DNA of 64,000 nucleotides from Pedosphaera sp. (lineage in GTDB: Bacteria > Verrucomicrobiota > Verrucomicrobiia > Limisphaerales > SIBH01), in assembly GCA_031414955.1 (NCBI GenBank), contig JANOQV010000040.1:1-64000 (forward strand), written 5' to 3'. The translations under genes and the position numbers were made by a program. Positions 30,301 to 61,902 of the stretch are shown here, one piece after another. The notes below the pieces were generated by a model that saw nothing but the letters and a program-made list of their open reading frames with translations, did no database searches and was not told the DNA's origin. Position 1 is the stretch's first letter, and the number at the start of each line of letters is the position of its first letter.

Positions 30301-31992
30301 TCGGTCATTATCACCGAAGTCATGTATCGTCCGCCCGATTTCGGCGGCGTGGACAATGATCTCGATGAGTTCATCGAGATTGTGAACATCGGCGCGTCGC
30401 CCGTGCCGCTCTACAGTCCGGCGCTGCCCACCGACACCTGGCACTTGCGCCACGCGGTCGATTTCGATTTCCCGATGAACCTCGAGCTGGCCGTGGGCGA
30501 AATCATCCTCGTCGTCGGCTTTGACCCGACCAATACCGTCGCGCTCGCGGATTTTCAGGCGCGCTACCAGGTCAATCCGTTGGTGCGCGTCTTCGGGCCG
30601 TGGTCCGGCCAGCTCGACAACTCTGGCGAAGACGTGGAGTTGAACCGCCCGCTCGCGCCGGGAACCAACGGAACTGTTTACGTGCGCGCGGATCAAGTTG
30701 GCTACGCCGACCATGCGCCCTGGGCGGCGGCGGCGGATGGCTACGGTCCGTCGTTGCAGCGCACGCCGCTGGTTTCCTTCGGCGATGATCCAGGGAGTTG
30801 GTCAGCGGCGACGGCCAGCGCTGGGGCGGCTTTCCCTGGCGGCTCCGCTCCGTTCATCACGGCGGGACCAGCCAGTGCTTCCGTCATTGGTGGACGTAGT
30901 ACGAATTTCTCGGTCGCGGCCTCGGGCCCGGCGCTGCGTTACCAATGGCGCATGGAGGGCGCGAACCTTCCCGGCGCGACCAATGGCACGCTTGCTTTGA
31001 GCAACATCCAGATCACGCAGGCTGGCGATTATCATGTGGCCGTGTTCAACGCGGCCGGCTCAGAGGTCAGCACCCATGCGCATCTCACCGTGCTCACGCC
31101 GGTGCTCTTCATCCTTCAACCCACCAACCAGAACGTGCTGAATGGCACCAACGTCACGCTCGTCTCGGCGGCCGTGGGCCATGGTCCCGTCACCTACCAG
31201 TGGCGCAACAATGGCACCAACATTCCCAACGCCACCAACGCGAGCCACAGTTTCAGCCCGGCCACGCTGGCCTTCGGGCACGGCAACTGGCAGGTCACGG
31301 CCTCGGATGCGCTGAGTTCCACCGACAGCTCGAATGCCTTTATCTTTGTGCTCGTCCGGCCCGGCATCATCCTCCAGCCGATGCCCCAGGCCGTGGGGCC
31401 GGGCCAGAGTGCGCTCTTCGTTTGCGTGGCCACCGGTGCGCCGCCCATTGTGTTCCGCTGGCTGACCAACGGCGTGGGCAGTGCCACCAACACCAGTGGC
31501 GTGTTCGTGTTCCCGAACGTCCAGGCCAGCTTGAGCGTGCGCGCCGTGGTCCAGAATGTGGCTGGGAGCGTGAACAGCAGCACCGTGGCCCTGACCGTCT
31601 GGCGCGACTTCGATGGTGATGGCATCGCGGATAATTGGGAGACGAACTACTTCGGCTTCAGCACCAACAGCGCCGCCGACGGTCTGCTGGACTTCGACGG
31701 TGACGGCCTGAACAACCACGACGAGTTCGTCGCCGGGACCAACCCGACCAATGCCCTGAGCGTCTTGAAACTGGTACGGAACGCGACCAACGCGAGCCTG
31801 CTTCAGTTCACCGCCCAGACGAACAAGACTTATACCGTCGTTTGCCGGACCAATCTGACGAGCGCGTGGTGGGTCGGGGTGACGAATATCTTCCCGGCCA
31901 TTACCGTGCGGACCATCGAGGTGAATTCCGCCTTCAGCCCAGCCCTGGACCCGGAGCGATACTACCACGTGCTGACGCCGATGAACCCATAG
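24340..31992 (+). CDS. Giant secreted protein: lamin-tail domains, L-type-lectin-like domains, CotH kinase-like domain, chitobiase/FN3-like, Ig domains, DxDGDG repeats, shared C-terminal module
   Basis: Signal peptide; four ITE/INE...IE..N LTD motifs; IRYTIDGT.P; CotH-like Y.GVYVLLEKI, NIDGY, PIWDWNLSWGN; YQWR Ig motifs; start 24340 or 24346. Confidence 0.88.
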   Translation: MLMSLRILSVLVLLISSLTHLRAADQVVITEFMAANSFTLADEDGGFSDWVEIYNADTNTVNLDGWSLTDNDGNLTKWQFPSTNMAPHTFLVVFASGKNRRVPGAPLHANFSLNAGGEYLALVRPDGVTIASEFAPQFPNQFSDVAFGFVMTGSTATLLPAGAGARALVPGSDIGTAWRGMNYDDSAWTTGTTGAGYDQGTNYLPGLGLNIGAVMSNVNASAYLRVPFEVSDPAQYEALTLRIRYDDGFIAYLNGTEVARRNAPVSPTWNSTATTGHGAPPPAAQVEDFEGSALNYTLNQYGTAPAPSVQLAGAGSTGRFLRLLTDPVNNQFNTVTFRQAAPGLFETITASFDFRGSDAAANPADGFAFMLIPTSVYGTNGPGLTVQPSFGVEEPNYPGVFAVGFDAYPHGTQNDVSVHWNGAELNNVTMPRAILDLISNQFHRVTITLQYVAGGARVTVRFVGDINGVPAAAYTPINNFFVPGLNPYQCRAQIAGRTGGADFSLDLDNLNLQFQPAAGLIAFEDIDLPAGLGVLAAGSNVLAIQGLNLTVADSDFLIEPQLVFANFGLTTNATFIAPATPGAWNNVSGAGTVAPVVFSPPPGVYSSNTLAVTLASASSSAEIRYTIDGTSPTASSLLYSGAITFGSNRVIRARAFAPGQVESEVTAGNYVLLDAGLTNFTSNLPLVIIDSLGGTIVAEVQIPTYVVFINTNGPGNRASMNGPFDYRGRAGVELHGQSSLGFPKQSMNLETDNEKDNDKAVSLLGLPKGSDWVLYAPYTDKTLMNDLLTYELHEAMGHYAVRRKFVEVFVRSTPGRLGTNDYRGVYVLLEKIRIDNDRVDISEPQSGEPGDPITGGYIFKRDKGSPGMVEFTTLNQPYTVAINGVSMQYHDPRGDELNPAQRSWLTNHLNEFETSLYGANWRDPLVGYLKYIAPASFVDQHWIVEFPKNIDGYRLSDYMHLDRGGKIKMEPIWDWNLSWGNANYLEGGLTNGWYHTQLGGGDDIWLSRLRTDPDFYQRIIDRWGELRTDVFALSNLLARVDRITNQLWEAQSRDFGRWPRLSAYVWPNPDGANLVPTGTDGTVATWHVNYATPGTYQNLIAEMKNWIRGRHAWIDARFVIKPALSLPPGSITPGALLSLSAPTGSVYYTLNNTDPRAAGGGVSSAAILYSGPITLQSNAGVMARAFHTNSWSPPASGVYVVSPPTLAITEIMFHPQDVPTNSPYGQEEFEFIEIKNTGLTTLNLQGARLAGGIEFTFQPSVLVPGGLPTTHDFDTVETQFTASTLNSGPGATVTGGGPDGNFLRLVHSGSTSVTRNRVAFSQTASGPYARLTADFDFRATTITPPATNGPASVQTFDAAGAAFTLGGVAAVTPANTGSSGSFLQLVPSAGSLVGTVGFERTATGAWNTVVASFDFRITPPSEANQADGMSFAFLNTANFGVAGAAPGMSEEMNLANTIGIGIDDYNNAEINNNHLSVHWNNAIVGTPYTPPFDFSNGQFHRAQVTIRFSGGAAFVTVRLTPDINGTPGQTVTLVQNLQINGVPPYEGRAAFGARTGGQWASHDIDNLNIQYSTDTGAAAGVSLALLPVNRFGNAGVGSTLAHYTDAPLVTNGLSMDLAFNGSNTANDVTFYYDRVALAAVSLPIGVLDLDEDVFHRASLTVQRASGGSYVTLSLTPNSQVAPGLPNTVVSNLYVLGLLPENARVELAGRNGGLNAALDVESVYVQYYDYASLLLAPGECILVVKNIAAFESRYGTGYRIAGEYSGTLDNSGDHIVLLGPVGEVILDFTYSDDWYHLTDGLGFSLVNANPGGPGAGYGSSTNWRGSSYQGGSPGAFDPVLNLAPILINEILANSILPEVDRIELFNPTTNDVNIGGWFLTDDWNSPKKFRIPNGTVISNGGFIVFHEGVFNPTPGLGSSFALGSDGDEVWLFSGDAATNLTGYVHGFDFGGSDENVSFGRYLDSAGGEHFPAQFVNTFGGPNSGPRLGSVIITEVMYRPPDFGGVDNDLDEFIEIVNIGASPVPLYSPALPTDTWHLRHAVDFDFPMNLELAVGEIILVVGFDPTNTVALADFQARYQVNPLVRVFGPWSGQLDNSGEDVELNRPLAPGTNGTVYVRADQVGYADHAPWAAAADGYGPSLQRTPLVSFGDDPGSWSAATASAGAAFPGGSAPFITAGPASASVIGGRSTNFSVAASGPALRYQWRMEGANLPGATNGTLALSNIQITQAGDYHVAVFNAAGSEVSTHAHLTVLTPVLFILQPTNQNVLNGTNVTLVSAAVGHGPVTYQWRNNGTNIPNATNASHSFSPATLAFGHGNWQVTASDALSSTDSSNAFIFVLVRPGIILQPMPQAVGPGQSALFVCVATGAPPIVFRWLTNGVGSATNTSGVFVFPNVQASLSVRAVVQNVAGSVNSSTVALTVWRDFDGDGIADNWETNYFGFSTNSAADGLLDFDGDGLNNHDEFVAGTNPTNALSVLKLVRNATNASLLQFTAQTNKTYTVVCRTNLTSAWWVGVTNIFPAITVRTIEVNSAFSPALDPERYYHVLTPMNP

Positions 31993-32138
31993 CGGAGCCG
32001 ACGGCTGCCTTGTGCGCGCAGTCTTGCTGGCCCGATCGTTCTGGGGACGGCGGCCTGGCCCGTACTTTCCCCGACGTCGGCTCGCGTTCCGCCCGGATTA
32101 CATTTTGGCCGTCCCGCACGTAGTCTGGTGACGTTTCA

Positions 32139-32423
32139 ATGACAATGAACATCGTGCTGCGACATAAAGTGTCTGGTCTGTATTATCAGGCGGCGGGTAA
32201 ATGGGTGCGGCGTTCGGATAACGCCTGTGTCTTCAAGAGTGCCCGGGCGGCTCGGCTCTACTTGAAATTGAACCAGTTGCGGGAGGCGCAGCCCGTGCCC
32301 CGGCTGGCCCCGTACCTCATGGCGATGTTGCACCGCCCGAGTCCCAGCATCTGGCAAATCTGGAGCCGCGGCGCTGCTTCGGGCTGGGACGGAAAAAAGT
32401 CCAGCCACTTCAACCGGAACTGA
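32139..32423 (+). CDS. Small hypothetical protein
   Basis: 94-aa ORF filling an intergenic gap; N-terminal VLRH..SGLYY...W...A..F pattern; function unknown. Confidence 0.5.
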   Translation: MTMNIVLRHKVSGLYYQAAGKWVRRSDNACVFKSARAARLYLKLNQLREAQPVPRLAPYLMAMLHRPSPSIWQIWSRGAASGWDGKKSSHFNRN

Positions 32424-35571: not shown

Positions 35572-35580
35572 GGTGCCGCC

Positions 35581-36096: not shown

Positions 36097-38385
36097 ATGA
36101 ATAGACATGCTCTCTGCTTACTGATGGCCGCGCTGCTCGGCGCGCGCAGCGCGGGCGCGCAGTTCTCCGGCACGGTCGAGGCGTGGGGGCGAAACGATTA
36201 TGGTCAGGTGAATGTACCTTTGGCCGCGCAAAGCGGAGTCATCGCGATTACGGCGGGAGGTTTGCATACGGCTGCCCTGAAATCCGATGGCAGCGTGCTG
36301 GCTTGGGGGCGCAGTTCTGAGGGCCAGATCGAGGTGCCCGTCGCGGCGCAGAGCGGAGTGACTTCAATCTCCGCCGGGATTTCTCACACTGTCGCCTTGA
36401 AGGAGAATGGAAGCGTGGTGGCGTGGGGAGCCGGCACCAACAACTGGGGATACATTCCCTATTTGGGCCAGTCGATCATTCCTGTGGCGGCGCAAAGTGG
36501 AGTGATCTCCATCGCGGCTGGAGGTTACCACACCCTGGCTCTGAAGATCGACGGGAGCGTAGTGGCATGGGGGGCGGGCAGCCCTGACTGGCCTTTCGAG
36601 CCACGGGAGCCGCACTTTGGTCAATCGGTCGTTCCCATGTCCGCACAAAGCGGAGTCACAGCGATTGCCGCGGGGGTGTATCACTCGGTGGCCCTGAAGA
36701 ATGATGGCAGCGTGGTGGTTTGGGGAAATGATTGGAATGGCAAAACAAATGTGCCTGTGGCGGCTCTGAGCGGGGTCGTTGCCATTGCCTCGGGAGACTT
36801 TCACATCGTGGCTCTTAGATCTGACGGCAGCGTGGTTGCATGGGGAGAAAACGGCATTGGCCAAACAGTCGTTCCCTCCACCGCGTTAAGCGGGGTAACG
36901 GCCATCGGTGCAGGATCAGCCCATACCCTGGCCGTGAAGAGTGACGGCACGTTGCTGGCGTGGGGCGATTACCTTTACGGGGAAACAAATGTGCCTCCTT
37001 CACCCGGCAGGATTGTGACTTCCATAACCGGTGGAGGATACCATTCTGTATTGCTGGCCGTTTCGACCGTTCCAGTGATCACGGTTCCACCTATCAGTCT
37101 GACCGTGTCCGAGGGCCACGCCGTCAGCTTCACCGTGGGAGCAAGCGGTTACCCGTTGTTTTATCAGTGGCGCAAGGACGGGACCAACCTCGCCGGGGCT
37201 ACGAATGCGTTTTGCAGTTTGGGAGTCGCGCAGAGCAATCAGGCCGGCAGTTATACCGTCAGGGTGAGCAACCTCCTCGGCGTTGTGACCAGCAGCCCAC
37301 CGGCGCTGCTGACGTGGAACGCAGCACCTTTTGGAACCGTGGTGGCCTGGGGATACGACTCGTACGGGCAATCGACCGTGCCCGTCGCGGCCCAGAGCGG
37401 AGTGAAGGCCATTGCGGCCGGAAGTTTTCACACCCTGGCCCTGAAGACGGACGGCAGCGTCGTGGCCTGGGGGCAGACAAACTATTATGGCTTACCGGGT
37501 AAAACCACGGTGCCATTGGCGGCGCAAAGCGGCGTCGTGGCGATTGCGGCGGGACAGGAGCACAGCGCAGCTTTGAAGCAGGACGGGACAGTGTGGGTGT
37601 GGGGAAACGGAGCCATTGGCGGAAGCAATGTAGCAGCACTGGGGGGTGCCAAAGCGATCGCGGCCGGGCTTTGGCACACCGTGGCCCTGAAGAGCAATGG
37701 CAGTGTGGTGGCGTGGGCACCCGGCGGTTTTGGCCCCGGTCCCATGCCCATTGCGGCGCAGAGCGGGGTCATGGCCATAGCTGCTGGAGATATTTCTGCC
37801 ATGGCGTTGAAAACCAACGGCAGCTTGATCATATGGGATGGCTGGAACAACTCCTATCCGATTCCACCAGAGGCTCAGAGCGGAGTGGTAGCCGTCGCTG
37901 GAGGCGGCCACTTCCTGGCCTTGAGGAGCGACAGCCGCGTGATCGATTGGGATATCAATGGCATCGGTGAAGCAATTGTTTCCCCGGTGGCCCAAAGCGG
38001 TGTCGTGGCAGCAGCGGCAGGGCAGTATCACAACGTGGTCTTGAGAAGCGACGGGCGAGTCGTGGCTTGGGGTCAAAACGATTTTGGCCAGACCAACGTA
38101 CCCGTCATCGCTCAGAGCGGCGTCATCGCCATCGCGGCCGGATACGGCCATACGGTGGCGCTCATCGGGAGTCCGCTTCCATTCACTGCTTTACGCGGGG
38201 ACAATGGAATGATCCTCACCTGGCCCACCAACGCCCCCGGCTTCACCTTGCAATCAACCACTGACCTGACGCCGCCAGTGAACTGGTTGGACGTCACCAA
38301 TCCGCCGGGGTTGCTCGGCGCGCAGTGGGCGGTGACCAATCCCTTCGCCAGCGGCGCGCGGTATTTTCGGCTGCGCAAGTTGTAG
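36097..38385 (+). CDS. Secreted RCC1-like repeat protein (two 7-repeat propellers, one Ig domain, shared C-terminal module)
   Basis: Signal peptide; repeated AQSGV.AIAAG..HT.ALK.DGSVVAWG; YQWRKDG Ig motif. Confidence 0.88.
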   Translation: MNRHALCLLMAALLGARSAGAQFSGTVEAWGRNDYGQVNVPLAAQSGVIAITAGGLHTAALKSDGSVLAWGRSSEGQIEVPVAAQSGVTSISAGISHTVALKENGSVVAWGAGTNNWGYIPYLGQSIIPVAAQSGVISIAAGGYHTLALKIDGSVVAWGAGSPDWPFEPREPHFGQSVVPMSAQSGVTAIAAGVYHSVALKNDGSVVVWGNDWNGKTNVPVAALSGVVAIASGDFHIVALRSDGSVVAWGENGIGQTVVPSTALSGVTAIGAGSAHTLAVKSDGTLLAWGDYLYGETNVPPSPGRIVTSITGGGYHSVLLAVSTVPVITVPPISLTVSEGHAVSFTVGASGYPLFYQWRKDGTNLAGATNAFCSLGVAQSNQAGSYTVRVSNLLGVVTSSPPALLTWNAAPFGTVVAWGYDSYGQSTVPVAAQSGVKAIAAGSFHTLALKTDGSVVAWGQTNYYGLPGKTTVPLAAQSGVVAIAAGQEHSAALKQDGTVWVWGNGAIGGSNVAALGGAKAIAAGLWHTVALKSNGSVVAWAPGGFGPGPMPIAAQSGVMAIAAGDISAMALKTNGSLIIWDGWNNSYPIPPEAQSGVVAVAGGGHFLALRSDSRVIDWDINGIGEAIVSPVAQSGVVAAAAGQYHNVVLRSDGRVVAWGQNDFGQTNVPVIAQSGVIAIAAGYGHTVALIGSPLPFTALRGDNGMILTWPTNAPGFTLQSTTDLTPPVNWLDVTNPPGLLGAQWAVTNPFASGARYFRLRKL

Positions 38386-38489: not shown

Positions 38490-39122
38490 TTACTCGCCGC
38501 GCAGGCGGAAGAATCTATGGGCACCGCCATGGTCGTGGACGGTGATCTCGTGGGGTAGGCTGTCGCCTTCGAAGGAGAGGGGCAGGGTTTCCCAAAGCCC
38601 GGTTCCCAGTGCGTCCGTAGCTTCCAAATACCAGACCTGGCCCTCGGGTGTTTCCAATATCAGATCCACGTCGTGGCCCTGTCCATTGGGCGTCGCGCGG
38701 ACGATTTCGAGGCTTGGCCGGGCGGGTTTGCACACGGGGACAACGAGGATAAAGGGCCGCACACAACACTCGACGAACTCCGCATCGTGCAGCGTGAACC
38801 GCACCGGGACGTTGGTGGGGCCGACGGCGGTGAATTTGAAGACCACGGTCGCGGACTGGCCGAGGGCCAGGGGCGTGGGAAAGGCCAGAATCGGACTGGG
38901 GAGGACGGTGGTGCCCGCCGGCAGATCGTTCAAGGCGAGGTAGGCGGCGGAGGGCAGGGCCTGATTCGTGACCCGCATCGAGCAGACGTAAAGCCCGTTA
39001 CTCAGGCAGCGGATGACGGTGCGGCCCACGTCCAGACACGCGGCGTCGGCCGAAGTGCCCAAGGCGTAAAACACCAAGGCCAAGAACCAGGCCCGCTTTG
39101 GCCATGTCATCAGGGCACGCAT
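38490..39122 (-). CDS. Secreted Cys-rich domain protein with shared C-terminal module
   Basis: Signal peptide; CL...I.CLSN...LHD.EF.ECC domain homologous to the neighbouring gene; ends HRFFRLRGE. Confidence 0.75.
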   Translation of the reverse strand: MRALMTWPKRAWFLALVFYALGTSADAACLDVGRTVIRCLSNGLYVCSMRVTNQALPSAAYLALNDLPAGTTVLPSPILAFPTPLALGQSATVVFKFTAVGPTNVPVRFTLHDAEFVECCVRPFILVVPVCKPARPSLEIVRATPNGQGHDVDLILETPEGQVWYLEATDALGTGLWETLPLSFEGDSLPHEITVHDHGGAHRFFRLRGE

Positions 39123-39190: not shown

Positions 39191-41479
39191 TCAATACCGG
39201 ACGCGGTAGAACCGTTGGGTGGCACCGGAAGTATCCTGAACGGTGATGACTGAACCGGTGCCGTTGATCGTGCGCAGCAACTTCCAATTGGTTGGGTTGA
39301 GCGAGTCGGTGTATTCAAGCCAGCAGGTGGTGCCGACCGGGGGGGCGAACCTGAACTCAGGCTTGCCGTTGACGAATTTCGGCAGCGCGACCGCCGCGCC
39401 ATCCGGTGTGCCCGCACTGGCGGTGAACGATCTCAGGAACGAGGCGCCGAGAATATCCAGATCCCCATCGACCGGCTCCACCGTGGCCAGCAGATTGTGC
39501 GTGCCACCGGCCACGCCTTGGAGCGAGAACGAGAACGACCCGTCCTCGGGATGTGCGTGACCCACTTCTTCCCCGTCCAGATCGAAGGAGACTTCCCGCA
39601 CCATGTCCCGCACCGAGGTGAGGGTCGTGCCCAGAGTGCCGGCCACGCTCACAGTTCCTCCGGAGACCGTCCCGTCGCCCGTGGGATCTATGATGATGAT
39701 GGGGGTGAAGAGGGCGGTGCGCCGGCGGGAGCAGCAGTGCCGGAAGCCCGAATCGTGGGCCGACACGATGAACGACCAGGTGCCGGGAGGCGCGGTGACG
39801 TTGACGCAAATGGTGGTGGAAGTCGTGAAGGGCGGGATGTTCACCGGGACGATGGGCGGAGAGAAGGTCGGCGGACTGCCGGCCGGTGTGCCGACCAGAT
39901 ACAGATAGCTGATGGTGTTGGTGGTTTCGTTATACCACTGGAAGCAGTAGCTGTAATTGTTGCCTGAGAGGTGTTTGATGCTCTCCTTGAGCACCGTGCC
40001 GCAGCATTCGGGCAGGGTGATGCAATGATCGGTGGCGCAGCACTGGGCGAAGGTTTCGTTATGCACCGCGATGGTGAAGCAGAGGTCGTGCGCCGCCGTG
40101 CCGCTGAAGCAAATCGTCACGTCCAGCGTGAAACTCCCGCCGGCCGGCACGGGGGTGGGCAGGGCTACAATCGGGCCGCCTTGCACGGTCACGCCGGGGG
40201 GCAAGGAGGGGAAGGAGACGTAACTGATGCTGTTGGTGAAATTGTTGGTGATGGAAACCCGCCAGCGGTAGCAGTTGTTGCTCAGGCAAGTGATCACTTC
40301 GCGGCCGAAAGTGAGGCAGCCGCCGCCTTCCCAAATCTTCTGCACCGTCTCGGAATAGTTGGTCACGCCGAGCGCATTCACCCAACTGGAGGTGATCAGA
40401 TCCGTGCCGGGGCCGCCATTGCCGGTCCAGGTGAAACAGGCCACGCCGCCGGGGCCGGTGACGGCCGTGCCGGTGAGCGGCGCATTCGGCCCGCTCACGA
40501 TGGTGAAGGTGACGGTCGTGCCGACCACTGGGCCGGAGTTGTTGGTGACCGTGGCGCAGACGGTGTGGGGCGTGTTGAGCGCGTTGGTGGCAATGGGCGG
40601 GCCAAGGTGGATCGTGCTGATGACGGTGACATCCTTGCCGCGCACGAGAATGTAAGGGACGCCCTGGGAGCCGTCCGAGGCGTTGAAAGTGCCGTTGGTG
40701 AGCGCGATGGCGAGCACGACGAAATTGGCCGGCCACACATCAAATCCTTCGTGGGTGGAGCAACCCCAGTTGCTGAGTTCGGCGTCTGTCAGGGCCGGAG
40801 CAGCGGTGAACACAGGATGGGTGGCGACTTGATGGCAAAGGTTGAAGCATACCCCGGGATAGTTACGCACCATGAACGTGCCGAAGGTGGTCAGATGCGG
40901 CACCAGCGTGGGCACCGTCGCGGGTGCCGTGTAGTCATAGTAACAACTAAGTGCGTAGTAGAGACCGGTCTGTGTCGCATCCGCGATGGCGAACTGGATG
41001 CCACGCTCCAGAGTTTTGGTCGCGCCCACTTGGGAGGGCGAGTGTAGGGCGTTGTCCACGCCTTCCAGAATCACATTGCCCGTGACCTGCGGACCCCAGG
41101 TCAGTTTCGTGGCGTTCAACACGCTCAATGCCGTGGCGTAGCCCGGCGCGCTGGTGCCGCAATCCGGATCCCCAAGGATGATGGCCCGGTATTGGTTGAA
41201 GCCAAAACCGGTCGGACCGCCTAGTCCGGTAGCCGGGATGCTGGACCATTGCGCCGCCGTGGCGATGTCCACGGCCAGGCCCAGGGATAGGGCGAAAACA
41301 GCCTCCTCGCTCGCGATACCGCCGCTGACAAACTCATCAAGGATGAGCACCCGGTTCAATGGCGCCGCAGAAGCGCGCATGGGTGTGAAGGCGAGAGCCA
41401 GCGCGGCCAGCAGACACAAGCAAAGGCTGGGTGCCGAAAAAGCAGTCCGGTAGGGACGGTTAGGAGCGTTATTTTTCAT
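39191..41479 (-). CDS. Secreted multidomain protein (Big-1-like Ig, two Cys-rich domains, shared C-terminal module)
   Basis: Signal peptide; HTVCATVT...G.TVTFT..GPN...G.A.F; ends QRFYRVRY. Confidence 0.82.
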   Translation of the reverse strand: MKNNAPNRPYRTAFSAPSLCLCLLAALALAFTPMRASAAPLNRVLILDEFVSGGIASEEAVFALSLGLAVDIATAAQWSSIPATGLGGPTGFGFNQYRAIILGDPDCGTSAPGYATALSVLNATKLTWGPQVTGNVILEGVDNALHSPSQVGATKTLERGIQFAIADATQTGLYYALSCYYDYTAPATVPTLVPHLTTFGTFMVRNYPGVCFNLCHQVATHPVFTAAPALTDAELSNWGCSTHEGFDVWPANFVVLAIALTNGTFNASDGSQGVPYILVRGKDVTVISTIHLGPPIATNALNTPHTVCATVTNNSGPVVGTTVTFTIVSGPNAPLTGTAVTGPGGVACFTWTGNGGPGTDLITSSWVNALGVTNYSETVQKIWEGGGCLTFGREVITCLSNNCYRWRVSITNNFTNSISYVSFPSLPPGVTVQGGPIVALPTPVPAGGSFTLDVTICFSGTAAHDLCFTIAVHNETFAQCCATDHCITLPECCGTVLKESIKHLSGNNYSYCFQWYNETTNTISYLYLVGTPAGSPPTFSPPIVPVNIPPFTTSTTICVNVTAPPGTWSFIVSAHDSGFRHCCSRRRTALFTPIIIIDPTGDGTVSGGTVSVAGTLGTTLTSVRDMVREVSFDLDGEEVGHAHPEDGSFSFSLQGVAGGTHNLLATVEPVDGDLDILGASFLRSFTASAGTPDGAAVALPKFVNGKPEFRFAPPVGTTCWLEYTDSLNPTNWKLLRTINGTGSVITVQDTSGATQRFYRVRY

Positions 41480-43945: not shown

Positions 43946-44770
43946 ATGAACATGCCATTCAAGTTACGTTCGCTCTTGCTCTTCACGTTTCTCGCCTCGG
44001 CACTGGCCGGACACTGCACGTACCTGACGCTCGAAGGCACGGTGGGGTGGCGAACTTCTGGAGACTACATCACCATCACGGCCGACCAGGTGGTGAACAA
44101 CGAGTCTGGCGGAGCGAGCGGTTCATTGCGCCTCAGGGTCTGGGCCACGACCACTCCTTATGGGGGCGGTTATATTTCCGGCTACGTGATGGGCACTCGA
44201 TCTTTCCGCAGCGTGCTGGAAGGCGGCTACTATTTTTACGACATTAGCGGGACGGTTGCTTATCACCGCCCGCCCGCCGGCCAGTACTACACCACCATGA
44301 CCTTGGAGGAATACGACGGCGGAACCTGGTGGATCGTCGATTATCGGACTTTCGACGGCCTTACCAGTTTTGGCGGCGCGGGCGGCAGCGGCGGGACGGG
44401 AGGTGGCTACAACGGTGATTTGAATCTCGAGGGCACCGTCTCCTGGTCGTCGCGCGGTTCCTTGGTCACGCTCCGGGCCGGCGAAATCTCCAATGACCGC
44501 GTCTCCGGTCGCAGCGGTTCCTTGCGTTTGCGGCTCTGGGCCACTTCCACGCCCTATGAGGGCGGGACTATTCGCGGTTACATTATGGGCACCAAGAGTT
44601 TTCGCGCGCTTGATGCGGGCTATTATTACTACGACATCGCCAAGACCGTCACCTTCACCCGGCCGCCGCGTGGCTACTACTACACCACGATGACCCTGCA
44701 AGAATACAGCGGGGGCCGATGGTACATCGTCGATTACGTCACCTTCTCAGGGCGCACTAGGTTTAACTGA
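43946..44770 (+). CDS. Secreted protein with two copies of an unknown ~120-aa domain
   Basis: Signal peptide; repeated SGSLRLR.WAT.TPY.GG...GY.MGT...RPP.G.YYTTMTL.EY. Confidence 0.8.
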   Translation: MNMPFKLRSLLLFTFLASALAGHCTYLTLEGTVGWRTSGDYITITADQVVNNESGGASGSLRLRVWATTTPYGGGYISGYVMGTRSFRSVLEGGYYFYDISGTVAYHRPPAGQYYTTMTLEEYDGGTWWIVDYRTFDGLTSFGGAGGSGGTGGGYNGDLNLEGTVSWSSRGSLVTLRAGEISNDRVSGRSGSLRLRLWATSTPYEGGTIRGYIMGTKSFRALDAGYYYYDIAKTVTFTRPPRGYYYTTMTLQEYSGGRWYIVDYVTFSGRTRFN

Positions 44771-44811: not shown

Positions 44812-45636
44812 ATGTCGTTGCGCAGATTACTCAGCCCGTTGCTTTGTCTGGCCTTTGTTGTACTGGCGGTTTCGCTTCCGGCCCAGGAGATCGATCTCGT
44901 CGGCAGCAACAGTTGGTGGAAGGTGGGAGCCACGCTCCGCATCTCCGCCGAGCGGGTGGAGAATCTGCGCGAGGCCGGAACGAGCGGCAATCTGCGGCTG
45001 CGCATCTGGGCCACGGATGAGATCGACGACGGCACTAATGACCTCACGGGCTTCGTGCTGGGCACTTCCAATCTTCGTCCATTGCCGGCTGGTTACGCCT
45101 ACGTGAATCTGAGCCGAGTAGTTCGCTATAATCGTCCGCCGCCCGGCCTCTATTACACGACCATCACCCTGGAGGAGAACACGGTGGACGGGTTCTTCAT
45201 CGTCGACTCCGAGAATTACCCCGGCCTCGTCAACCTGGGCCGCTACGGCTACGGCGCAGTGGAAAATCTCGGCTCGAACGGGGACGTTGGTTTTGTTGGC
45301 GACGTCATCTGGCTGGCGGGGAACGGACGGGTGAGGTTTTACACCGAGGAGATGCTGAATCAGCGCGTGAGCGGGCGCAGCGGCGTGCTCCGCATCCGCC
45401 TATGGGCGACCGCCACGCCGTACGACGGCGGGCCGTTGCTCCAAGGCTATCCGATGGCCACGCGCGGAGTAGGGAGGCTGTCGGCTGGTGGTTCGATCCC
45501 GCTGTTCGCTCGCTCGGCCTTGTTCCGCGCGCCGCCCACGGGCGAGTATTACGTGACGATGACGCTGGAGGAACTCGTGCCGGGCGGTTGGAACATCGTG
45601 GATTACGTGACCTTCCCTGAGACGAGCCTCTTCTGA
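44812..45636 (+). CDS. Tandem paralog of 43946-44770
   Basis: Same duplicated SG.LR.R.WAT...PP.G.YY.T.TLEE domain; signal peptide. Confidence 0.8.
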   Translation: MSLRRLLSPLLCLAFVVLAVSLPAQEIDLVGSNSWWKVGATLRISAERVENLREAGTSGNLRLRIWATDEIDDGTNDLTGFVLGTSNLRPLPAGYAYVNLSRVVRYNRPPPGLYYTTITLEENTVDGFFIVDSENYPGLVNLGRYGYGAVENLGSNGDVGFVGDVIWLAGNGRVRFYTEEMLNQRVSGRSGVLRIRLWATATPYDGGPLLQGYPMATRGVGRLSAGGSIPLFARSALFRAPPTGEYYVTMTLEELVPGGWNIVDYVTFPETSLF

Positions 45637-45927: not shown

Positions 45928-48441
45928 TCACTCGTTGGAGATCTGCTTCAGGAGGCGTTGTTTGGTTTGCTCGGGCAGGGGAGCGGTGGCGAGCCAGGCC
46001 TGGGCGGCCGTCGGATCCTGGCGAATCCAGTTGGAAGCGATGTTCTCCATGCGGCTGGTGCGCTGCCGTTCGTCGGTCATCTTTTCGGCCCAACCCGCCG
46101 CCGTTTTCGGATCGGAGTAAGTGAGGTTGCTGACCATGGCGTTGACCGCGCTTTCGCGGGCCGGCCCCTCGGGAAAAGTTTGAATCCACGCGCCGGCCCC
46201 GGTGGGATCGACCCGGCCCCAGGCTGAGATGACATTCCCGACGGCTTCATCGCGCATGGTGCCGGCGGGGAACCCGGCCACCCAGGCGGCGGCAGATTGC
46301 GGATCAGAATTGGCCCAAGTCGAGACGACGGAAGAAACGGCGCGGCGCTGACCATCGCCGTCGGGTAATCCGGCGACGTAAGTGGCGGCGGCCTGCGGGT
46401 CGTTGTTGGCCCAGCCGCTGACCACGGAGCCGAGCACGTTGTTCTTGGCCGTGCCGTCGGGCAACTTGGTCGCCCAGGCGAGGGCGGTGTCGGGATCGGT
46501 CGAGGCCCATTGGCTGGCCACGCTGGAGAGGAAGTTGTTGCGCGCATTGCCGGCGGGCAGCGTCTCGGCGAAGGCGGCGGCGCCCTGCGGATCATTTTGC
46601 GCCCACTGGTGACTGAGATTGTTGAGCGCGCTGTTCTTGCCCGCGCCCTCGGGAAGTTTCTTCACCCACTCGACGGCTCCGCTCAGATCGGAACTGGCCC
46701 ATTGCGAAGCCACGCTGCTGATCATTTCATTTTGCGTCTGGCCGGCGGGCATGGAGAGGGCGAGTTCGGCGGCGGAACTCGGGTTGGCGCTGGACATGCG
46801 GTACATCATGTTGCGTGCGGCGTCGCGCTGGGCTGGTCCAGCGGGCAAACCCTTCACCCAGGCCATCGCGCCCTCCAGATCGGTGTAAGACCACTGGCTG
46901 GCGAGGCTGCTGATGGCGCTGTTCTGCGCCGAGCCGGGCGGGAGCGTCATCACGAATTCCGACGCGGCCTTCGGGTCGGTGGAACCCCAAGAAGAAATCA
47001 CCTGGCTCATCGCACTGTTGCGTCCCTGGCTGGGTGGCAGGGCTTGGGCCCATTTTAACGCGGCACTGGGATCGTTGTTGGCCCACTGGCTGACCACGGA
47101 ACTGAGCAGGTTGTTTTTCCCGGTGCCGGCGGGAAGGTTTTGCACGTAGGCGGCGGCGGCATCCGGCGCGGTGGCTGCCCAGGAGGAGACGACGTTCTGG
47201 AGCGCGCTGTTACGCGTGGAGCCGGCGGGCAATGTTTCGGCCCATTGCCGGGCGGCGTTCACATCCGTGGCCGCCCATTGGCTGGCGAGGGAGTTGACGA
47301 GCGAGTTCTTGTTCTGCCCGGCAGGCAGGTTCTGGATGTAATCGCGCATGCCCTGCGGATCACTTTGCGCCCACTGATGGCCGATGTTGCCGTAAGCGCT
47401 TTGTTTGGTCTGGCCCTCGGGCAGTTTTTGAATCCAGGCGAGGGCGGAGGGCAGGTCGCTGTTGGCGAGTTGCGAGGCGATGCTGCTGATGGCGCTGTTG
47501 CGAAGTTCGCCCGGGGGCAGGGAGGCGGCGAAGTCCGCGGCCAGCTTCGGATTGGCCGTGGCCAGGCTGTACATCATGCTCTGCATGGCCTGCTGTCTCT
47601 TGGTGCCCTGCGGCAGGCTCTTCACCCAGGCGATGGCGGCCTCGGGATCCTTCTGCGCCCATTGCGAGGCGATGGAGCCAAAGACGTAACTGTCGCGGCC
47701 GGTGCCGAGGGTCATGGCGGCCTTGGCCGCGCCCTCGGGATCTCTTTGCGCCCACTGGGAGAGAATCGTGCTGTAGAGCTGCGCCTTGTTGCCCACGCCG
47801 GGCAGGCTGTCGGCCAAAGCCATCGCTTCCTGCGGATTGTTGGCGGCGATGCCGGCGATCAACGACTGGAGAGCTTGGGTGCGTTCCTGTCCGGCGGGGA
47901 GCGCCTGGGCGTAAGCCGACGCGCCGGCGGGATCGTGCTCGGCCCAGACCGCGATCACGCTTTGCAGGGCGCTGGTGCGTTGGTGCGAAACCGGCAGGGT
48001 TTTGGCGTAGGCCAGCGCGGCCTTGGGATCGAGCGCGGCCCAGCGCGTGATCAATCTTTGGGAGACGACGTTGCGCGCTTCCATCGAGTGATGTTTGGCC
48101 ACGATGTTCAGCGCCTCGGCAATGTCCGCGTCATCGATCCGGTTGCCCAGCTCCATCATGGACATGTAGCGAGTGCTTTGGGATTCCCGCAACACCTTCT
48201 CCAGGGCGAGCGGCAGTTCGGCGATGGAAACGCGCCCGGTGGTCTTGAAGGTCGGCTCGCGGGGCGGTTCGGCGGGGCGCAGCGTTGCGAGCGAGGTTTT
48301 GGGCGGCGGTTTGGGTTCGGCCAGTTCCAGCGTGGCGGCGGACGGGGCCACGGGCGCGACCAGTTTTCCACCCGCGACTAGGCCGACGCCGAGACCGGCC
48401 GCGAGACCAACGACTCCAAAGAACAGGGCGCGTGCATTCAT
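45928..48441 (-). CDS. Membrane-anchored alpha-solenoid repeat protein (~22 repeats of ~32 aa)
   Basis: N-terminal TM segment; repeat WA..DP.AA..W...LP.G..R/KN.A...V... Confidence 0.88.
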   Translation of the reverse strand: MNARALFFGVVGLAAGLGVGLVAGGKLVAPVAPSAATLELAEPKPPPKTSLATLRPAEPPREPTFKTTGRVSIAELPLALEKVLRESQSTRYMSMMELGNRIDDADIAEALNIVAKHHSMEARNVVSQRLITRWAALDPKAALAYAKTLPVSHQRTSALQSVIAVWAEHDPAGASAYAQALPAGQERTQALQSLIAGIAANNPQEAMALADSLPGVGNKAQLYSTILSQWAQRDPEGAAKAAMTLGTGRDSYVFGSIASQWAQKDPEAAIAWVKSLPQGTKRQQAMQSMMYSLATANPKLAADFAASLPPGELRNSAISSIASQLANSDLPSALAWIQKLPEGQTKQSAYGNIGHQWAQSDPQGMRDYIQNLPAGQNKNSLVNSLASQWAATDVNAARQWAETLPAGSTRNSALQNVVSSWAATAPDAAAAYVQNLPAGTGKNNLLSSVVSQWANNDPSAALKWAQALPPSQGRNSAMSQVISSWGSTDPKAASEFVMTLPPGSAQNSAISSLASQWSYTDLEGAMAWVKGLPAGPAQRDAARNMMYRMSSANPSSAAELALSMPAGQTQNEMISSVASQWASSDLSGAVEWVKKLPEGAGKNSALNNLSHQWAQNDPQGAAAFAETLPAGNARNNFLSSVASQWASTDPDTALAWATKLPDGTAKNNVLGSVVSGWANNDPQAAATYVAGLPDGDGQRRAVSSVVSTWANSDPQSAAAWVAGFPAGTMRDEAVGNVISAWGRVDPTGAGAWIQTFPEGPARESAVNAMVSNLTYSDPKTAAGWAEKMTDERQRTSRMENIASNWIRQDPTAAQAWLATAPLPEQTKQRLLKQISNE

Positions 48442-48611
48442 AGATTGAAGACCGGGCCGCAGCCTAGCAGCCGGCCCCAGGCGGTCGCAAAGAAATTGAG
48501 GCCAAACCAAACGAAACGCCGCGTGGCCTGGAATCTGGAAATGTTGCGCGCTCTCCACGGACCTGACCGCGCGTGCTTGAACCTCGAGGCCATGCCTCCC
48601 CAGGCCGACGC

Positions 48612-49609: not shown

Positions 49610-50233
49610 GTGGCTTTCGCGCTCATTGTGGCTGACCCGCTGCCAGAATCGCCGCCGCCGCCGCGCAGCGACGCGGAGTTGATTGCCGCAGTGTTGAAGG
49701 GCGACATTGCGAGCTTTGAACCGCTCGTGGCCAAGTACTCGCCCCGGCTCTTCGCCACTGCCCGCCGTTATGCCCGGCGCGAGGATGAGGTCGAGGATGT
49801 GGTGCAGGAGATTTGGTCCAAGGCTTTCCTGAAGCTTGCCACCTTTCGCGGCGACGCCCCTTTCGAGCACTGGCTCATGCGTATGGCCGTCCGCACCTGC
49901 TACGATTTCCTCCGTCACCATCAGCGTAACCGGGAGAACACCTTCACCGAACTGACCACGGAGGAGGACGACTGGCTGGAGCGCATCACGAGCGCGCCGG
50001 AGCAAGTGAGTGACCGAGCGGACGCCGCGAAGCAGCTCGTGCAGAAACTGCTCGCCATGCTTTCTCCCCAGGCGCGGCTGGTGATTCAACTCCTGGAGAT
50101 CGAGGACTGGACGGTGAAGGAGATTTCCCACCTGACCGGATGGTCGGTGCCGCTGGTGAAGGTGCGGGCCTTTCGCGCGCGCGCCGAAATGAGAAAATGC
50201 CTCCTGCGCGTCGCCAAGGACAAGTACCTGTAA
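49610..50233 (+). CDS. ECF RNA polymerase sigma factor
   Basis: D.ELI.....GD..SFE.LV, EDVVQE, FEHWL.R.A, EIS..TG.S...VKVR.FRAR; alternative GTG start at 49628. Confidence 0.92.
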   Translation: MAFALIVADPLPESPPPPRSDAELIAAVLKGDIASFEPLVAKYSPRLFATARRYARREDEVEDVVQEIWSKAFLKLATFRGDAPFEHWLMRMAVRTCYDFLRHHQRNRENTFTELTTEEDDWLERITSAPEQVSDRADAAKQLVQKLLAMLSPQARLVIQLLEIEDWTVKEISHLTGWSVPLVKVRAFRARAEMRKCLLRVAKDKYL

Positions 50234-53002: not shown

Positions 53003-55054
53003 ATGAAAGCCCTCCACCATCTCGCGCGCCTTGCCGCACTCGCAATCTGTTTCGCCGCAGGCCTGGCGGCGACCCACGCCGCGCCGCCCAGCCTACAACC
53101 GCTTATCACCGGCAAGTGGCCCGCATGGCCACGAATCGGATTCGCCAACGATGTCCAAGTAGTAGGCAACTTTGCTTACATTGGCCTCCAACAAGAGGGC
53201 GGCCTGGCGGTTATTGACGTGAGCGATCCGGCCAACTGCGTGCAAGTCGGCGGCTATGTAACCGACGGGTTTCCAAACGGCGTGGCGGTGTTGGGCAATT
53301 ACGTCTTCATGGCGGATTACTATGAGGGTTTGCAGGTGTTTAACGTGAGCAACCCGGCCAACTGTGTGCAAGTGGGCAGCTATGGCACCAGCGGGCATGC
53401 CCGGGGCGTGGTGGTGGCGGGCAACTACGCCTACGTAGCGGATTCGGATGCGGGCTTGCAGGTGTTCGACGTGAGCAACCCCACAAATTGCGTCATAGTC
53501 GGCGGCTGTTACACCGACGGCAACTCCGTGGATGTGGCGGTGTCGGGCAACTACGCTTACCTGGCGGATGATGAGGCAGGTTTGCAGGTGATTGACGTAA
53601 GCGACCCGGCCAATTGCGTGCGCGTGGGCGGGTATGACACCTGGTTGGCCCGCGCCGTGGCGGTGTCGGGAAACTACGCCTACGTGGCGGATGACACGAA
53701 TGGCTTGCAAGTGATTGATGTGAGCAACCCCACCAACTGCGTGCGCGTGGGTGGGTATGACACCAGCGGGATTGCCTACGGCGTGACAGTGTCGGCGAAC
53801 TACGCTTACGTGGCGGATGCCTTCCGGGGTCTGCAGGTGATTGACATAAGCAACCCTACCAACTGCGTGCGCGTGGGTGGTGCTGCCACCAGCGGATTTG
53901 CCGTGGGTGTGGTGGTGTCGGGAAACCACACCTACGTGGCGGCTAACCAAGCCGGCCTACAAGTGATTAACGTCAGCAACCCGACCAACTGCGTGCAAGT
54001 GGGTGGCTATCACACCAGCGGGCGAGCCCAAGGCGTGGGAGTGTCAGGGAATTACGCCTTTGTGGCGGATCAGTTCGGGGGGTTGCAGGCGGTTGATGTG
54101 AGCAACCCGGCGAGCTGCGTGCGTGTTGGAGGATACGACTCGCGCGATACTGTTGAGGGCGTGGCGATGTCTGGAAACTACGCATACGTCGCGAACCGCA
54201 GTCTAGGACTGACGGTTGTTGACGTAAGTATCCCAACGAAATGCGTGCGCGTGGGCGGCTACAATACGAGCGGGATTGCCTGGGGCGTGGCGGTGTCGGG
54301 CAACTACGCTTACGTGGCGGATGAATTTGCGGGCTTGCAGGTGATTGATGCAAGGAACCCAACCAACTGCCTACGCGTCGGCGGGTATGCCACCAGCGGG
54401 AATGCCCTTAGCGTGGCGGTATCGGGCAGCTACGCCTATGTGGTGGGTAGCGGGAGCTTGGAGGTGATTAACGTGAGTAATCCCACCAACTGCATGCTCG
54501 TGGGTGGGTATTACACCGGCGGCGGCACCCTCGGTGTGGCGGTGTCGGGGAACTATGCGTACATCGCGGATGAGTTTGGGGGCTTGCAGGTGATTGACGT
54601 GAGCAACCCCACCAATTGCGTGCGCGTGGGCGGCTACGCCAACGTGGAGGCATACGCGGTGGCGGTGGCGGGGAACTATGCCTACGTGGTGGACATATTT
54701 GAGGGCTTGCAGGTGTTTGATGTGAGCAACCCAACCAACTGCGTGCGCGTGGGAAGCTATGCCACCGGCGAGAATACCCTAGGGGTGGCTGTGGTCGCCG
54801 GTCGCATCTACGTGTGCGCTGCGCAGCAAGGTCTGCTGGTGCTGCCCAGCGTGCCTAACGTGCAACTCACCCTGCGGGTGAACGCCACCACCAACGAGAC
54901 CTTCACCCTCGAAAGCGCCACCAATCTGCTCAAACCAATCGCCTGGACGACGCTCGTGACCACCAACGTCCCCGTCATGCCCTTCGACTTCGTGGACTTC
55001 GACGTGCAGCGCTCCGAGAAGCCGCAGAAGTTCTACCGCGTCCGCCAGCCGTAG
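53003..55054 (+). CDS. Secreted LVIVD-repeat protein (14 repeats) with shared C-terminal module
   Basis: Signal peptide; ~42-aa repeat VAVSGNYAYVAD...GLQVIDVSNPTNCVRVGGY; ends KFYRVRQP. Confidence 0.9.
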   Translation: MKALHHLARLAALAICFAAGLAATHAAPPSLQPLITGKWPAWPRIGFANDVQVVGNFAYIGLQQEGGLAVIDVSDPANCVQVGGYVTDGFPNGVAVLGNYVFMADYYEGLQVFNVSNPANCVQVGSYGTSGHARGVVVAGNYAYVADSDAGLQVFDVSNPTNCVIVGGCYTDGNSVDVAVSGNYAYLADDEAGLQVIDVSDPANCVRVGGYDTWLARAVAVSGNYAYVADDTNGLQVIDVSNPTNCVRVGGYDTSGIAYGVTVSANYAYVADAFRGLQVIDISNPTNCVRVGGAATSGFAVGVVVSGNHTYVAANQAGLQVINVSNPTNCVQVGGYHTSGRAQGVGVSGNYAFVADQFGGLQAVDVSNPASCVRVGGYDSRDTVEGVAMSGNYAYVANRSLGLTVVDVSIPTKCVRVGGYNTSGIAWGVAVSGNYAYVADEFAGLQVIDARNPTNCLRVGGYATSGNALSVAVSGSYAYVVGSGSLEVINVSNPTNCMLVGGYYTGGGTLGVAVSGNYAYIADEFGGLQVIDVSNPTNCVRVGGYANVEAYAVAVAGNYAYVVDIFEGLQVFDVSNPTNCVRVGSYATGENTLGVAVVAGRIYVCAAQQGLLVLPSVPNVQLTLRVNATTNETFTLESATNLLKPIAWTTLVTTNVPVMPFDFVDFDVQRSEKPQKFYRVRQP

Positions 55055-55289: not shown

Positions 55290-55326
55290 GATCTTGTTCT
55301 CCTGTGCCGCACCAAGTTTGTCAACC

Positions 55327-55440
55327 GCCTGGACGCCGCTCGTGACCACCAACGCCCCGGTCATGCCCTTCGACTTCGTGGACTTCGACGTGAAGCGCTC
55401 GGAGCAGCCGCAGAAGTTCTACCGCGTCCGCCAGCCGTGA
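55327..55440 (+). pseudogene. Orphan duplicate of the LVIVD gene 3' end
   Basis: 114-nt copy of 54941-55054 with 8 differences; AWTPLVTTNAPVMPFDFVDFDVKRSEQPQKFYRVRQP*. Confidence 0.9.
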
Positions 55441-59915: not shown

Positions 59916-60099
59916 GCGGCCAACTGTTTGAGGACCAGCGACGCAAGTCACGCCTGGTCCTCGTCGCAGTCGAGGCATCGAGGCTCATGTTGCGGCCACG
60001 TGAGCGGGCCGCTTCCGCTTCACCTCAACCGCAATCCTTTCTGGCCGCGCAGTCAAATTGCGCTAAGGTGTCGTTGACCCGGCAGACATCCTGAAACTT

Positions 60100-61902
60100 A
60101 TGAGCATACTCACGTTCCATCGCGGCCCCGTCTGGTGCTTGCTCATGCTGCTTTTTGTCCACGCCAGTCGCGCCGCCACGAATTTCATCTCCGGCACGAT
60201 CAGCAACGACGTCACCTGGTCGGGAACTAACTGGCTGTCCGGCACGGTCGTGGTGAGCAACGGCGTGACGGTCAGCATCGCGCCGGGCACGCAGATGTTG
60301 ATGAACACCAACGCCACGCTGCTCATTTACGGGCGGTTGCTGGCCGACGGCACGAGCAACGCACCCGTTCGTTTCACGCGGGCCACGACCGCCGCGCGCT
60401 GGTCGGAGATGAGATTCATCGAGGCGGATGACAGCCGCTTCCGGCACTGCGTGATCGAATACGCCGACAGCGCGGGCGATCATCAGGATTATTATCCGAC
60501 CAACTGCACGACGGGGCAGGGCGTGTCGCCGCGCAATTATCACGAGGCGATTGTCGCGCTGGCCACGCATCTCGACGTGGAGAATTGCACTTTCCAAAAC
60601 ATGGTCGGCGGCGCGGGCGGGAACGAGGGCGACGTCTTCGCGATCATCTCGGATGACTACCAGTTCCCCGGGACCGCTTCTGCGCACATCCGGTGGTGCG
60701 TTTTCACCGACATCGGCCAGGCCATCCACACGCGCTACTCCTATGTGCTGGTGCAGGGTTGCACCTTCTCCAGCAAGAACGGTGACAACGATGACGTCGA
60801 CATGTACGGAGAGAGCCTTCCAGTGCCGCTCATCATCGGCAACACGTTCCTCTCGGGCCACGAGGACAAGATCAATCCTACGCGCTGCTCGGCTATCATC
60901 ATGAACAACTACATTTCCGGCGGCGATGATCACGGCGTGGTGCTGCGCGACAAGTGTTACCCCGTCGTGATCAACAACATCTTCTCCAACTTCACGGCCG
61001 CGGCCATCTCGGTGCAGAACCAGTGCGACGCGCTCATCGCCAACAACACGATCATCAATTCCGGTCGCGGCATCCGCATGTTCGATCACACCGCGCGCCA
61101 CGGCCCGCCGTACTGCCTGAATCCCGGCAACGGCAAGGTCACAGTGATCAACACCATCCTCTGGAACACACCCACCGGGCCGGTCACGATGGAGGCGAGC
61201 GCCTTTCTGCCCCACCCGGAGCTTACGGTCACCCATTGCGACGTGCAGGGAGGGAGGGCCAGCATCGTGACGAACAACGCCAACTGCGTCGTGGTCTGGG
61301 GGCCGGGCAACCTCAATGCCGACCCGCTCTTCACCAACGGCGTTTTTTTGCTGGCCGGTTCGCCGTGCATTGATGCCGGGACCAACGCGTTGCTCCTCGC
61401 GTCCTCCAACTGGACAGCCAGCGTGACGAATGATTTTCTGGGCCTACCGCGTCCGCTCGACGGCGACGGCAGCAATGGCGCGGCCTGGGACATCGGCGCG
61501 GAAGAGGTTTTCCTCGCGACGGCGGACTCCAACGGCGACGGGATTCCCGATGGCTGGACGCGCAATTTTGGTTTCAATCCAACCGACCCCGCCGTGGGCG
61601 GCGGCAACCCTGACAACGATCCGCACACCACGTATCAGGAATGGGTTGCAGACACGAACCCGACCAATGCGCTCTCCTTTTTCCGCATCGCTTCCATCCC
61701 GGCAACGCCAGGCTCGGTCTCCTTCGCCAGTTCCTCCAACCGCCTCTACACGCTCCTGGCTTCCACGAACCTCACCCCGAGCAACAGCTTCAATGCGGTC
61801 GGCGGCCAGACCAATGTGCCGGGCAACGGTGCCACGCAGACGCTCGCCGACACCAACGGCGCCCCGGCCAAGTTCTTTCAAGTGCAGGTGAGGACGCCGT
61901 AG
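60100..61902 (+). CDS. Secreted right-handed beta-helix protein with DxDGDG repeats and shared C-terminal module
   Basis: Signal peptide; repeated I.NN.I/F; DP.F..., SPCIDAG, DIGA.E; DSNGDGIPD; ends KFFQVQV. Confidence 0.85.
   Translation: MSILTFHRGPVWCLLMLLFVHASRAATNFISGTISNDVTWSGTNWLSGTVVVSNGVTVSIAPGTQMLMNTNATLLIYGRLLADGTSNAPVRFTRATTAARWSEMRFIEADDSRFRHCVIEYADSAGDHQDYYPTNCTTGQGVSPRNYHEAIVALATHLDVENCTFQNMVGGAGGNEGDVFAIISDDYQFPGTASAHIRWCVFTDIGQAIHTRYSYVLVQGCTFSSKNGDNDDVDMYGESLPVPLIIGNTFLSGHEDKINPTRCSAIIMNNYISGGDDHGVVLRDKCYPVVINNIFSNFTAAAISVQNQCDALIANNTIINSGRGIRMFDHTARHGPPYCLNPGNGKVTVINTILWNTPTGPVTMEASAFLPHPELTVTHCDVQGGRASIVTNNANCVVVWGPGNLNADPLFTNGVFLLAGSPCIDAGTNALLLASSNWTASVTNDFLGLPRPLDGDGSNGAAWDIGAEEVFLATADSNGDGIPDGWTRNFGFNPTDPAVGGGNPDNDPHTTYQEWVADTNPTNALSFFRIASIPATPGSVSFASSSNRLYTLLASTNLTPSNSFNAVGGQTNVPGNGATQTLADTNGAPAKFFQVQVRTP

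Follow-up and report, generated by a model that had tools for sequence, protein, structure and literature searches.

A 64,000-nucleotide stretch of a Pedosphaera sp. genome (contig JANOQV010000040.1 of GCA_031414955.1, positions 1 to 64,000; hereafter the window) encodes six otherwise unrelated exported proteins that end in one module of about 70 amino acids (aa). We found this module on 207 open reading frames (ORFs) of the source genome. It is predicted to be a fibronectin type III (FN3) domain without its last strand, and by orthology it also ends a surface-located sulfatase of Akkermansia muciniphila. Our tentative reading, to which we give slightly less than an even chance, is that the module serves as a folded, portable tag by which proteins reach the surface in a secretin-dependent way; recognition, route and retention are inferred in it. 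Because this reading and two of its rivals, a docking domain and a signal like the C-terminal domains (CTDs) of type IX secretion systems (T9SS), all tie the module to the cell surface, some role in surface localisation is very likely.

The initial annotation had placed six signal-peptide-bearing proteins with a common tail in this window, and both the ORFs and the tail sequences proved to be as described. A giant CotH/lamin-tail (LTD)/immunoglobulin-like (Ig) protein occupies 24340..31992 on the + strand (ORF listed from 24175) and ends in an FN3 module without strand G (31774..31989, E 1.6e-7), preceded by a DxDGDG linker resembling TSP3 repeats (TSP3_bac, residues 2506-2527). It is followed on this strand by a protein with two RCC1-like propellers and Ig (36097..38385, ORF listed from 35956), whose module lies at 38164..38379 (hidden Markov model (HMM) E 3.6e-10). 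The - strand carries two proteins without a known family: a small one (38490..39122, ORF listed to 39287), whose module (38493..38729, HMM E 5.5e-5) is the most divergent of the six, and one of 762 aa (39191..41479), whose module (39194..39409) was the copy used for fold prediction. An LVIVD-repeat protein (53003..55054, +; module 54824..55051, HMM E 2e-9) and a beta-helix protein with a choice-of-anchor Q domain (60100..61902, +; module 61669..61899, HMM E 1.6e-9) complete the set. Inspection by eye supports a Sec-type signal peptide on all six; the proteins probably start at 24340, 36097, 39122, 41479, 53003 and 60100. Compared in pairs, the tails are little alike (local BLOSUM scores 19-66), yet an HMM built with one of them left out still placed each held-out tail at rank 1-10 of 3855 C-termini (3854 background sequences plus the query), with E values from 3e-5 to 0.28, the weakest being that of the 38490 ORF, indicating that the six are homologous. 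A seventh, partial copy (55306..55440, +, found by HMM match) is a near-duplicate of about 120 nucleotides of the LVIVD gene end, about 390 nucleotides downstream of that gene. No passenger or signal peptide was seen for it. The near-duplication suggests that tail DNA was duplicated here or left behind by recombination.

The module is abundant throughout the source genome (G000; 6.55 Mb in 313 contigs, 95.9% complete with 5.8% contamination, the window being contig C40), whose named relatives belong to Verrucomicrobiota subdivision 3/Limisphaerales. A position-blind iterated HMM, run over its 56,942 stop-to-stop ORFs with a threshold of E<=1e-3, returned 186 domains on 185 ORFs, and 174 of the 186 end no more than 10 aa from the ORF end. 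Two module models were used, a first and narrower one (A1) and a broader one with three Akkermansia-type tails among its seeds (A2). Their union gives the 207 ORFs named above, with a terminal copy in 191. The module is borne by 47 of the 64 ORFs of at least 2000 aa, several further ORFs of that size end in a visibly shorter variant missed by the models, and tail genes make up 11.7% of the genome. By a crude heuristic applied genome-wide to complete tail ORFs of at least 300 aa, a signal peptide was scored on 118/154 tail ORFs vs 654/2499 other ORFs. A transmembrane (TM)-like segment falls within the last 80 aa in 3/207, so that the proposed absence of a TM helix holds, and with it the distinction from the PEP-CTERM, LPXTG and GlyGly-CTERM signals, which combine a motif with a TM helix and a basic tail. 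The claim that the module is always terminal holds in the window and fails in the genome at large, where 13 non-terminal matches (E<=0.01) include five directly behind a signal peptide, three internal copies and the first of a tandem pair. In one further case an insert of about 230 aa splits the module, yet its last strand (F) is still C-terminal. Across about 190 unrelated passengers a W is conserved in 99%, an R in 90%, an F in 81% and an L in 80%. A family of tiny proteins consists of a signal peptide, a Gly-rich segment of about 55 aa and the tail (C238:5050-5517, C23:34481-34978, C132:44571-45086, C89:4352-4867 and C172:26474-27043), and represents a natural minimal cargo.

The AlphaFold2 model of the tail of the 762-aa protein (pLDDT 87) has six strands. 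The best fold matches, at Z 5.6-6.8, are to FN3 domains, of whose 90-97 residues ~1-74 are aligned, and the module profile cross-matches true FN3 repeats, so that both A-F topology and sequence kinship point to FN3. Strand G is missing: the stop codon falls within a few residues of strand F. In tandem arrays, which hold 3-10 copies at a period of 75-83 aa, the next copy begins directly after strand F, and 110/113 such arrays end at the C-terminus. By contrast, the true FN3 repeats matched by the profile run on into strand G with a period of ~90-100, and 21/29 are not terminal. From the fold alignment together with the array period and strand evidence, the module is predicted to be an FN3 derivative that lacks G. 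The Fn3 domains of PelI and Pel3 belong to the group that ties for best fold match (Z 6.5-6.6, root-mean-square deviation 2.4-2.5, 66 residues aligned); the fold that they have in common with the module reveals no function. Arrays of up to 10 copies end giant subtilase/P-domain proteins (P0192-P0222).

As the initial annotation held, the module corresponds to no characterised family: Pfam and NCBIfam cover none of the tails in a scan that took in 66 of about 174 terminal ones at E<=0.1. PF28492 was considered and rejected as the tail family, since it occurs on about 12/120 of the beta-helix homologues listed and is absent from 70/70 tail-profile matches. A supposed conserved tail family of about 300 aa was an artefact of one seed, and its N-terminal domain was not found in the source genome. 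At 50% identity, 92,215 sequence clusters match the module at E<=1e-3, some true FN3 cross-matches included; the named matches are from Verrucomicrobiota, no search aimed at other phyla having been made. With A1, a tail was detected in 69/151 Verrucomicrobiota genomes. This model found 0/14 Akkermansia-type tails where A2 found 7/8, and other negatives may therefore be false too. With A2, 40/41 genomes of the order carry a tail (E<=1e-9), as do 52 of 80 genomes of the phylum. The 80 were hand-picked as 40 A1 positives and 40 A1 negatives and are thus not a random sample, and the 52 retain two genomes (G002 and G034) whose matches are probably F5/8 domains; matches in G115, G118 and G058 were rejected as such. 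Five weak GH2-type matches were likewise set aside as false positives, from a set in which 22/27 matches are terminal. A literature search, which did not cover subscription papers, found no published account of the family, of an FN3 fold without strand G or of a secretin link, beyond a remark on the Akkermansia enzyme Amuc0953. A shared terminal sorting domain is known as a kind; this family, its fold and its secretin link are uncatalogued.

It is this enzyme that connects the module to the cell surface. Akkermansia-type genomes encode sulfatases of 1423-1437 aa that terminate in the module. One of 1423 aa (L128) aligns with PDB 9S8X from residue 32 to residue 1294 (2472 bits), the tail lying outside the crystallised chain, and A1, built without this tail, recovers it at E 0.0014 within the locus set. 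The 682-aa PDB 9S8A matches the sulfatase core only. Both entries stand in the data list of bioRxiv 10.1101/2025.09.11.675649 and probably represent Amuc0953 (9S8X) and its tail-less paralogue Amuc0451 (9S8A). On this identification the Amuc0953 orthologues end in the module, and the CTD of Amuc0953 is, judged by orthology, of the same family. According to the two reports (PMC13524802; bioRxiv 10.1101/2025.09.11.675649), transposon mutants assign an extracellular, cell-bound activity to Amuc0953 and an intracellular one to Amuc0451, and the authors hold that the SPI enzyme Amuc0953 requires an unknown translocation mechanism. They judge an AlphaFold 3 (AF3) model of its CTD to be T9SS-CTD-like (PMC13524802). 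What is accessible of that paper treats one protein and contains no phylum-wide family, FN3 fold lacking strand G or secretin link. Amuc0953 is the only experimentally localised cargo of the module family. Other tail proteins of Akkermansia-type genomes are a GH18 enzyme, a sialidase and a raffinose-synthase-like enzyme. At several loci (L127-L129, L255, L258, L260 and L261), one or two PEP-CTERM-like genes often stand immediately upstream of a tail-bearing glycan enzyme.

The slot that the module occupies is also informative. In the source genome, the same passenger ends at the same position either in PEP-CTERM or in the module (C141:22306 vs C284:9528, E 3.7e-42), with further cases on C193 and C159. 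The two signals are thus interchangeable in one terminal slot, whereas the module has neither the TM helix nor the basic tail of PEP-CTERM. Among the passengers in the window, two score above the cut-off of an NCBIfam choice-of-anchor family: the LVIVD protein for choice-of-anchor B (102.4 bits vs 100) and the beta-helix protein for choice-of-anchor Q (29.7 bits vs 25). Such families are defined by their occurrence with alternative sorting signals. Taken together, terminal bias, signal peptides, the PEP-CTERM swap and the Amuc0953-type sulfatase support the initial proposal of a lineage-specific export or anchoring tag, export by the tag itself being putative.

We then consider which machinery could read such a tag. 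The source genome has three secretin systems, of Amuc_1098-1101 type (C30), PilMNOPQ type (C146) and GspD type (C22). Its type II secretion system (T2SS)/type IV filament genes amount to three full secretins, four GspE/PilB-like ATPases (E<1e-130) and about 30 ORFs with a pilin motif; as in such systems, the cargo bears a Sec signal peptide by the crude heuristic. An Amuc_1102-like protein was not found in this genome. The Amuc_1098-1101 type IV pilus-like cluster (families NF042912, NF038287 and NF045709) is described as a pilus system, and Amuc_1098 exceeds every other outer-membrane protein of A. muciniphila in abundance (PMC4960237); our literature search yielded neither a protein substrate nor a targeting signal for the cluster. 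The C30 cluster encodes a PilM-like protein, a PilO-like protein, a membrane-anchored accessory protein and a TPR-bearing secretin. Amuc_1099-like proteins of several lineages (L136-L137 and L142-L145) have the DxDGDG...E...GTxP linker motif that is seen before many tails.

Among the 80 hand-picked genomes, 49 have both the tail and Amuc_1101, three the tail only, 19 Amuc_1101 only and nine neither. The three tail-positive genomes without Amuc_1101 carry a shorter Amuc_1098-like secretin, so that 52/52 have an Amuc_1098-type system. Six genomes with no secretin-model match and two with only other secretins are tail-free. Three Akkermansia-type genomes have just two secretin matches each, both of Amuc_1098 type. 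In the neighbourhoods of the best 80 of 592 secretin loci, 102 tail matches fall in 659 kb downstream vs one in 271 kb upstream, and a tail gene stands behind the secretin in 53/61 of these loci with at least 8 kb downstream. Unrelated tail-bearing giants lie behind secretins in G138, G011 and G141, and in G179 two tails are left, one of them on the gene behind the secretin. In this order, a block of three genes conserved behind the Amuc_1098-type secretin (L061:8630-14810 on C30 of the source genome; L147-L226) contains X1, a repeat protein with a tail in most genomes, the tail-less X2 and X3, of about 1000 aa with a tail. X2 was rejected as a PorU-like protease or universal receptor, that is, as a general component: HExxH occurs in 0/70 sequences, its confident model has weak zincin-like fold matches (Z 3.6-4.3) and none by Foldseek, and outside the order one weak match was found in 80 genomes. 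Right behind the PilQ-type secretin on C146 lies a 900-aa NHL-repeat protein (L062:7468-10170) that has the usual pre-tail linker and ends just short of where a tail would start; at the matching place G183 has a tail-bearing ORF of 1020 aa.

A precedent for an FN3-type signal read by a secretin machine exists. In PMC7949064, the C-C' loop (loop 3) of the Fn3 domain of PelI/Pel3 is a T2SS signal that binds GspC and GspD, and folded cargo crosses via the secretin. That domain is a complete seven-stranded Fn3, and known T2SS signals are composite and substrate-specific, whereas the module is one interchangeable domain on hundreds of cargoes. In the secretin-dependent reading, cargo would be exported by Sec and would fold in the periplasm. 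An Amuc_1098-1101-type machine may then read two conserved elements, the C-C' loop (L, W) and the F strand (RFYR), perhaps with a partner strand that pairs at the open F edge. Cargo would next pass the outer membrane through the secretin and would be retained on the surface, probably uncleaved, given that N-terminal and tandem copies exist. A bolder version, to which we give distinctly less credence, is an undescribed Verrucomicrobiota route in which a type IV filament/secretin machine, one component of which supplies the missing strand G, reads one universal FN3 tag and carries unrelated proteins by the hundreds, some as long as ~5000 aa, to the surface, Akkermansia mucin-degrading enzymes included: a T2SS-like system with T9SS-like addressing. 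The initial annotation had left the machinery without a name; the Amuc_1098-1101-type system is now a candidate, which may export the tail proteins.

Several observations weigh against secretin-dependent export. Most of the 53/61 adjacency goes back to a single orthologous block of one order, X1(tail)-X2-X3(tail); outside the order, a tail was scored at 2/17 Amuc_1101 loci and 2/11 further secretin loci. The out-of-order tails near secretins sit on unrelated passengers, and some follow a PilQ-type secretin. In the source genome, which has three secretin systems to choose from, X1, the first gene downstream of the Amuc_1098-type secretin, has no tail. The secretin system is nearly phylum-wide (68/80) and 19/68 have no detected tail, while in G157 the secretin is retained and the tail is down to one weak match. 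The secretin-less genomes represent about three lineages, several with small genomes, and co-absence of tail and secretin is therefore weak support. Pilin genes are not enriched within 5 kb of tail genes (4/20 vs 987/4185). At Z<7, the PelI fold match is no better than those of many unrelated FN3 domains, the evidence for surface location comes from one enzyme, and arrays of 3-10 copies fit an avidity module better than a one-time signal.

Such arrays would be expected of a docking or retention domain, comparable to dockerin or SLH, which binds a surface scaffold, a glycan or a PEP-CTERM protein after an export independent of the module. Dockerin and SLH modules occur at either end of proteins or in tandem, and the module is similarly independent of position, with its five copies directly behind a signal peptide, three internal ones and arrays of short period. 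It takes the slot of an anchoring signal, Akkermansia-type tail enzymes often stand directly behind PEP-CTERM-like genes, and Amuc0953 is bound to the cells and absent from the medium (PMC13524802). None of the 66 tails gave a dockerin or SLH match in Pfam, however, a scaffold carrying repeats of a partner domain was not found, and X2, the best conserved candidate, is order-specific. Retention alone would also leave unexplained why the SPI protein, but not its tail-less paralogue, crosses the outer membrane. We regard docking as a serious but less probable explanation than secretin-dependent export.

The analogy with T9SS CTDs, drawn in the initial annotation, survives for the layout. Like CTD type A of Bacteroidota (PF18962 Por_Secre_tail/TIGR04183), whose cargo ends on the cell surface, the module is a small all-beta C-terminal sandwich without a TM helix on many unrelated Sec-exported passengers, and the authors' comparison for Amuc0953 points the same way. 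Under a mechanism of this kind, some beta-barrel translocon would read the free C-terminus, which would then be cut off and give way to an anchor of lipid or glycan. By contrast, 0/66 tails match PF18962, TIGR04183 or TIGR04131, and PorV (PF19572) was not found in the source genome, with a positive control in B. thetaiotaomicron. SprA and GldN/PorN were found in 0/1 and 0/12 genomes, in searches in which no control genome gave a match, and no SprA-sized barrel stood out by eye among tail-less source-genome ORFs of at least 1200 aa. No T9SS CTD chain is among the best 50 matches listed of the fold searches, which leaves room for a resemblance. The T9SS CTD folds as an Ig-like 3+4 sandwich of seven strands and has a functional motif at its C-terminus (PMC11285876), whereas the module is predicted to have the six strands A-F and also occurs N-terminally and in tandem. 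N-terminal and internal copies could not be processed in this manner, N-terminal and tandem ones speak against a signal dependent on cleavage at a free C-terminus, and the conserved zincin-like neighbour X2 lacks HExxH. We consider a T9SS-like mechanism the least probable explanation. Slightly less improbable, though still unlikely, is that the module is a passive cap, a spacer or a ligand-binding FN3 derivative that recombination distributed over large exported proteins and that plays no part in sorting. Its clear FN3 ancestry and the orphan duplicate at 55306-55440, a copy of tail DNA, are consistent with this, as is the lower conservation of the tail (48%) than of the passenger (60%) among beta-helix homologues; yet the tail is retained in 118/120 of these among the matches listed. 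Weak matches to F5/8 type C (CBM32-like) domains exist (5/66 tails in Pfam, best E 0.0035; 2rv9, E 3e-5), but none is full-length above the cut-off, and the match is confined to a common hairpin motif. The near-invariant W and R, the C-terminal position of short-period arrays as opposed to true FN3 repeats, and the F strand that remains terminal behind a large insert all speak against a passive role.

These results tie Amuc0953, whose surface transport mechanism is unknown according to the 2026 paper (PMC13524802), to a domain family of ~92,000 clusters. With a candidate machine named in an organism for which transposon mutants are available, the question of surface export becomes directly testable. 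If the secretin route is correct, a secretin system would be reading one portable signal common to its cargo, unlike known T2SS substrates, which share none, and a sequence rule could predict the surface proteins of a phylum whose members are major degraders of polysaccharides. Surface display in a candidate probiotic is another use to which the tail might be put. Were it just a docking module, it would still form a large uncatalogued family that merits a Pfam entry.

A second terminal module, of about 135 aa, usually paired and ending V-E-V-Y-D/E, was observed in family f5 at L135:9323-13414, L265:11128-14589 and L266:10166-16843. It was not found in the source genome and has 23 matches in G024 and 63 in G045. 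It occurs on the gene right behind a secretin. That it shares the Amuc_1098-type secretin was rejected, as both genomes in which it is abundant are without that secretin. Within the window, tandem 274-aa paralogues (43946-44770 and 44812-45636, +) have signal peptides, end in F/FN and each consist of two similar repeats of about 120 aa, with 0 Pfam/NCBIfam matches. An 876-aa protein (45928-48558, -), with an N-terminal hydrophobic segment and a long helical array of W-A-x-x-D-P repeats, adjoins an extracytoplasmic function (ECF) sigma factor (49610-50233).

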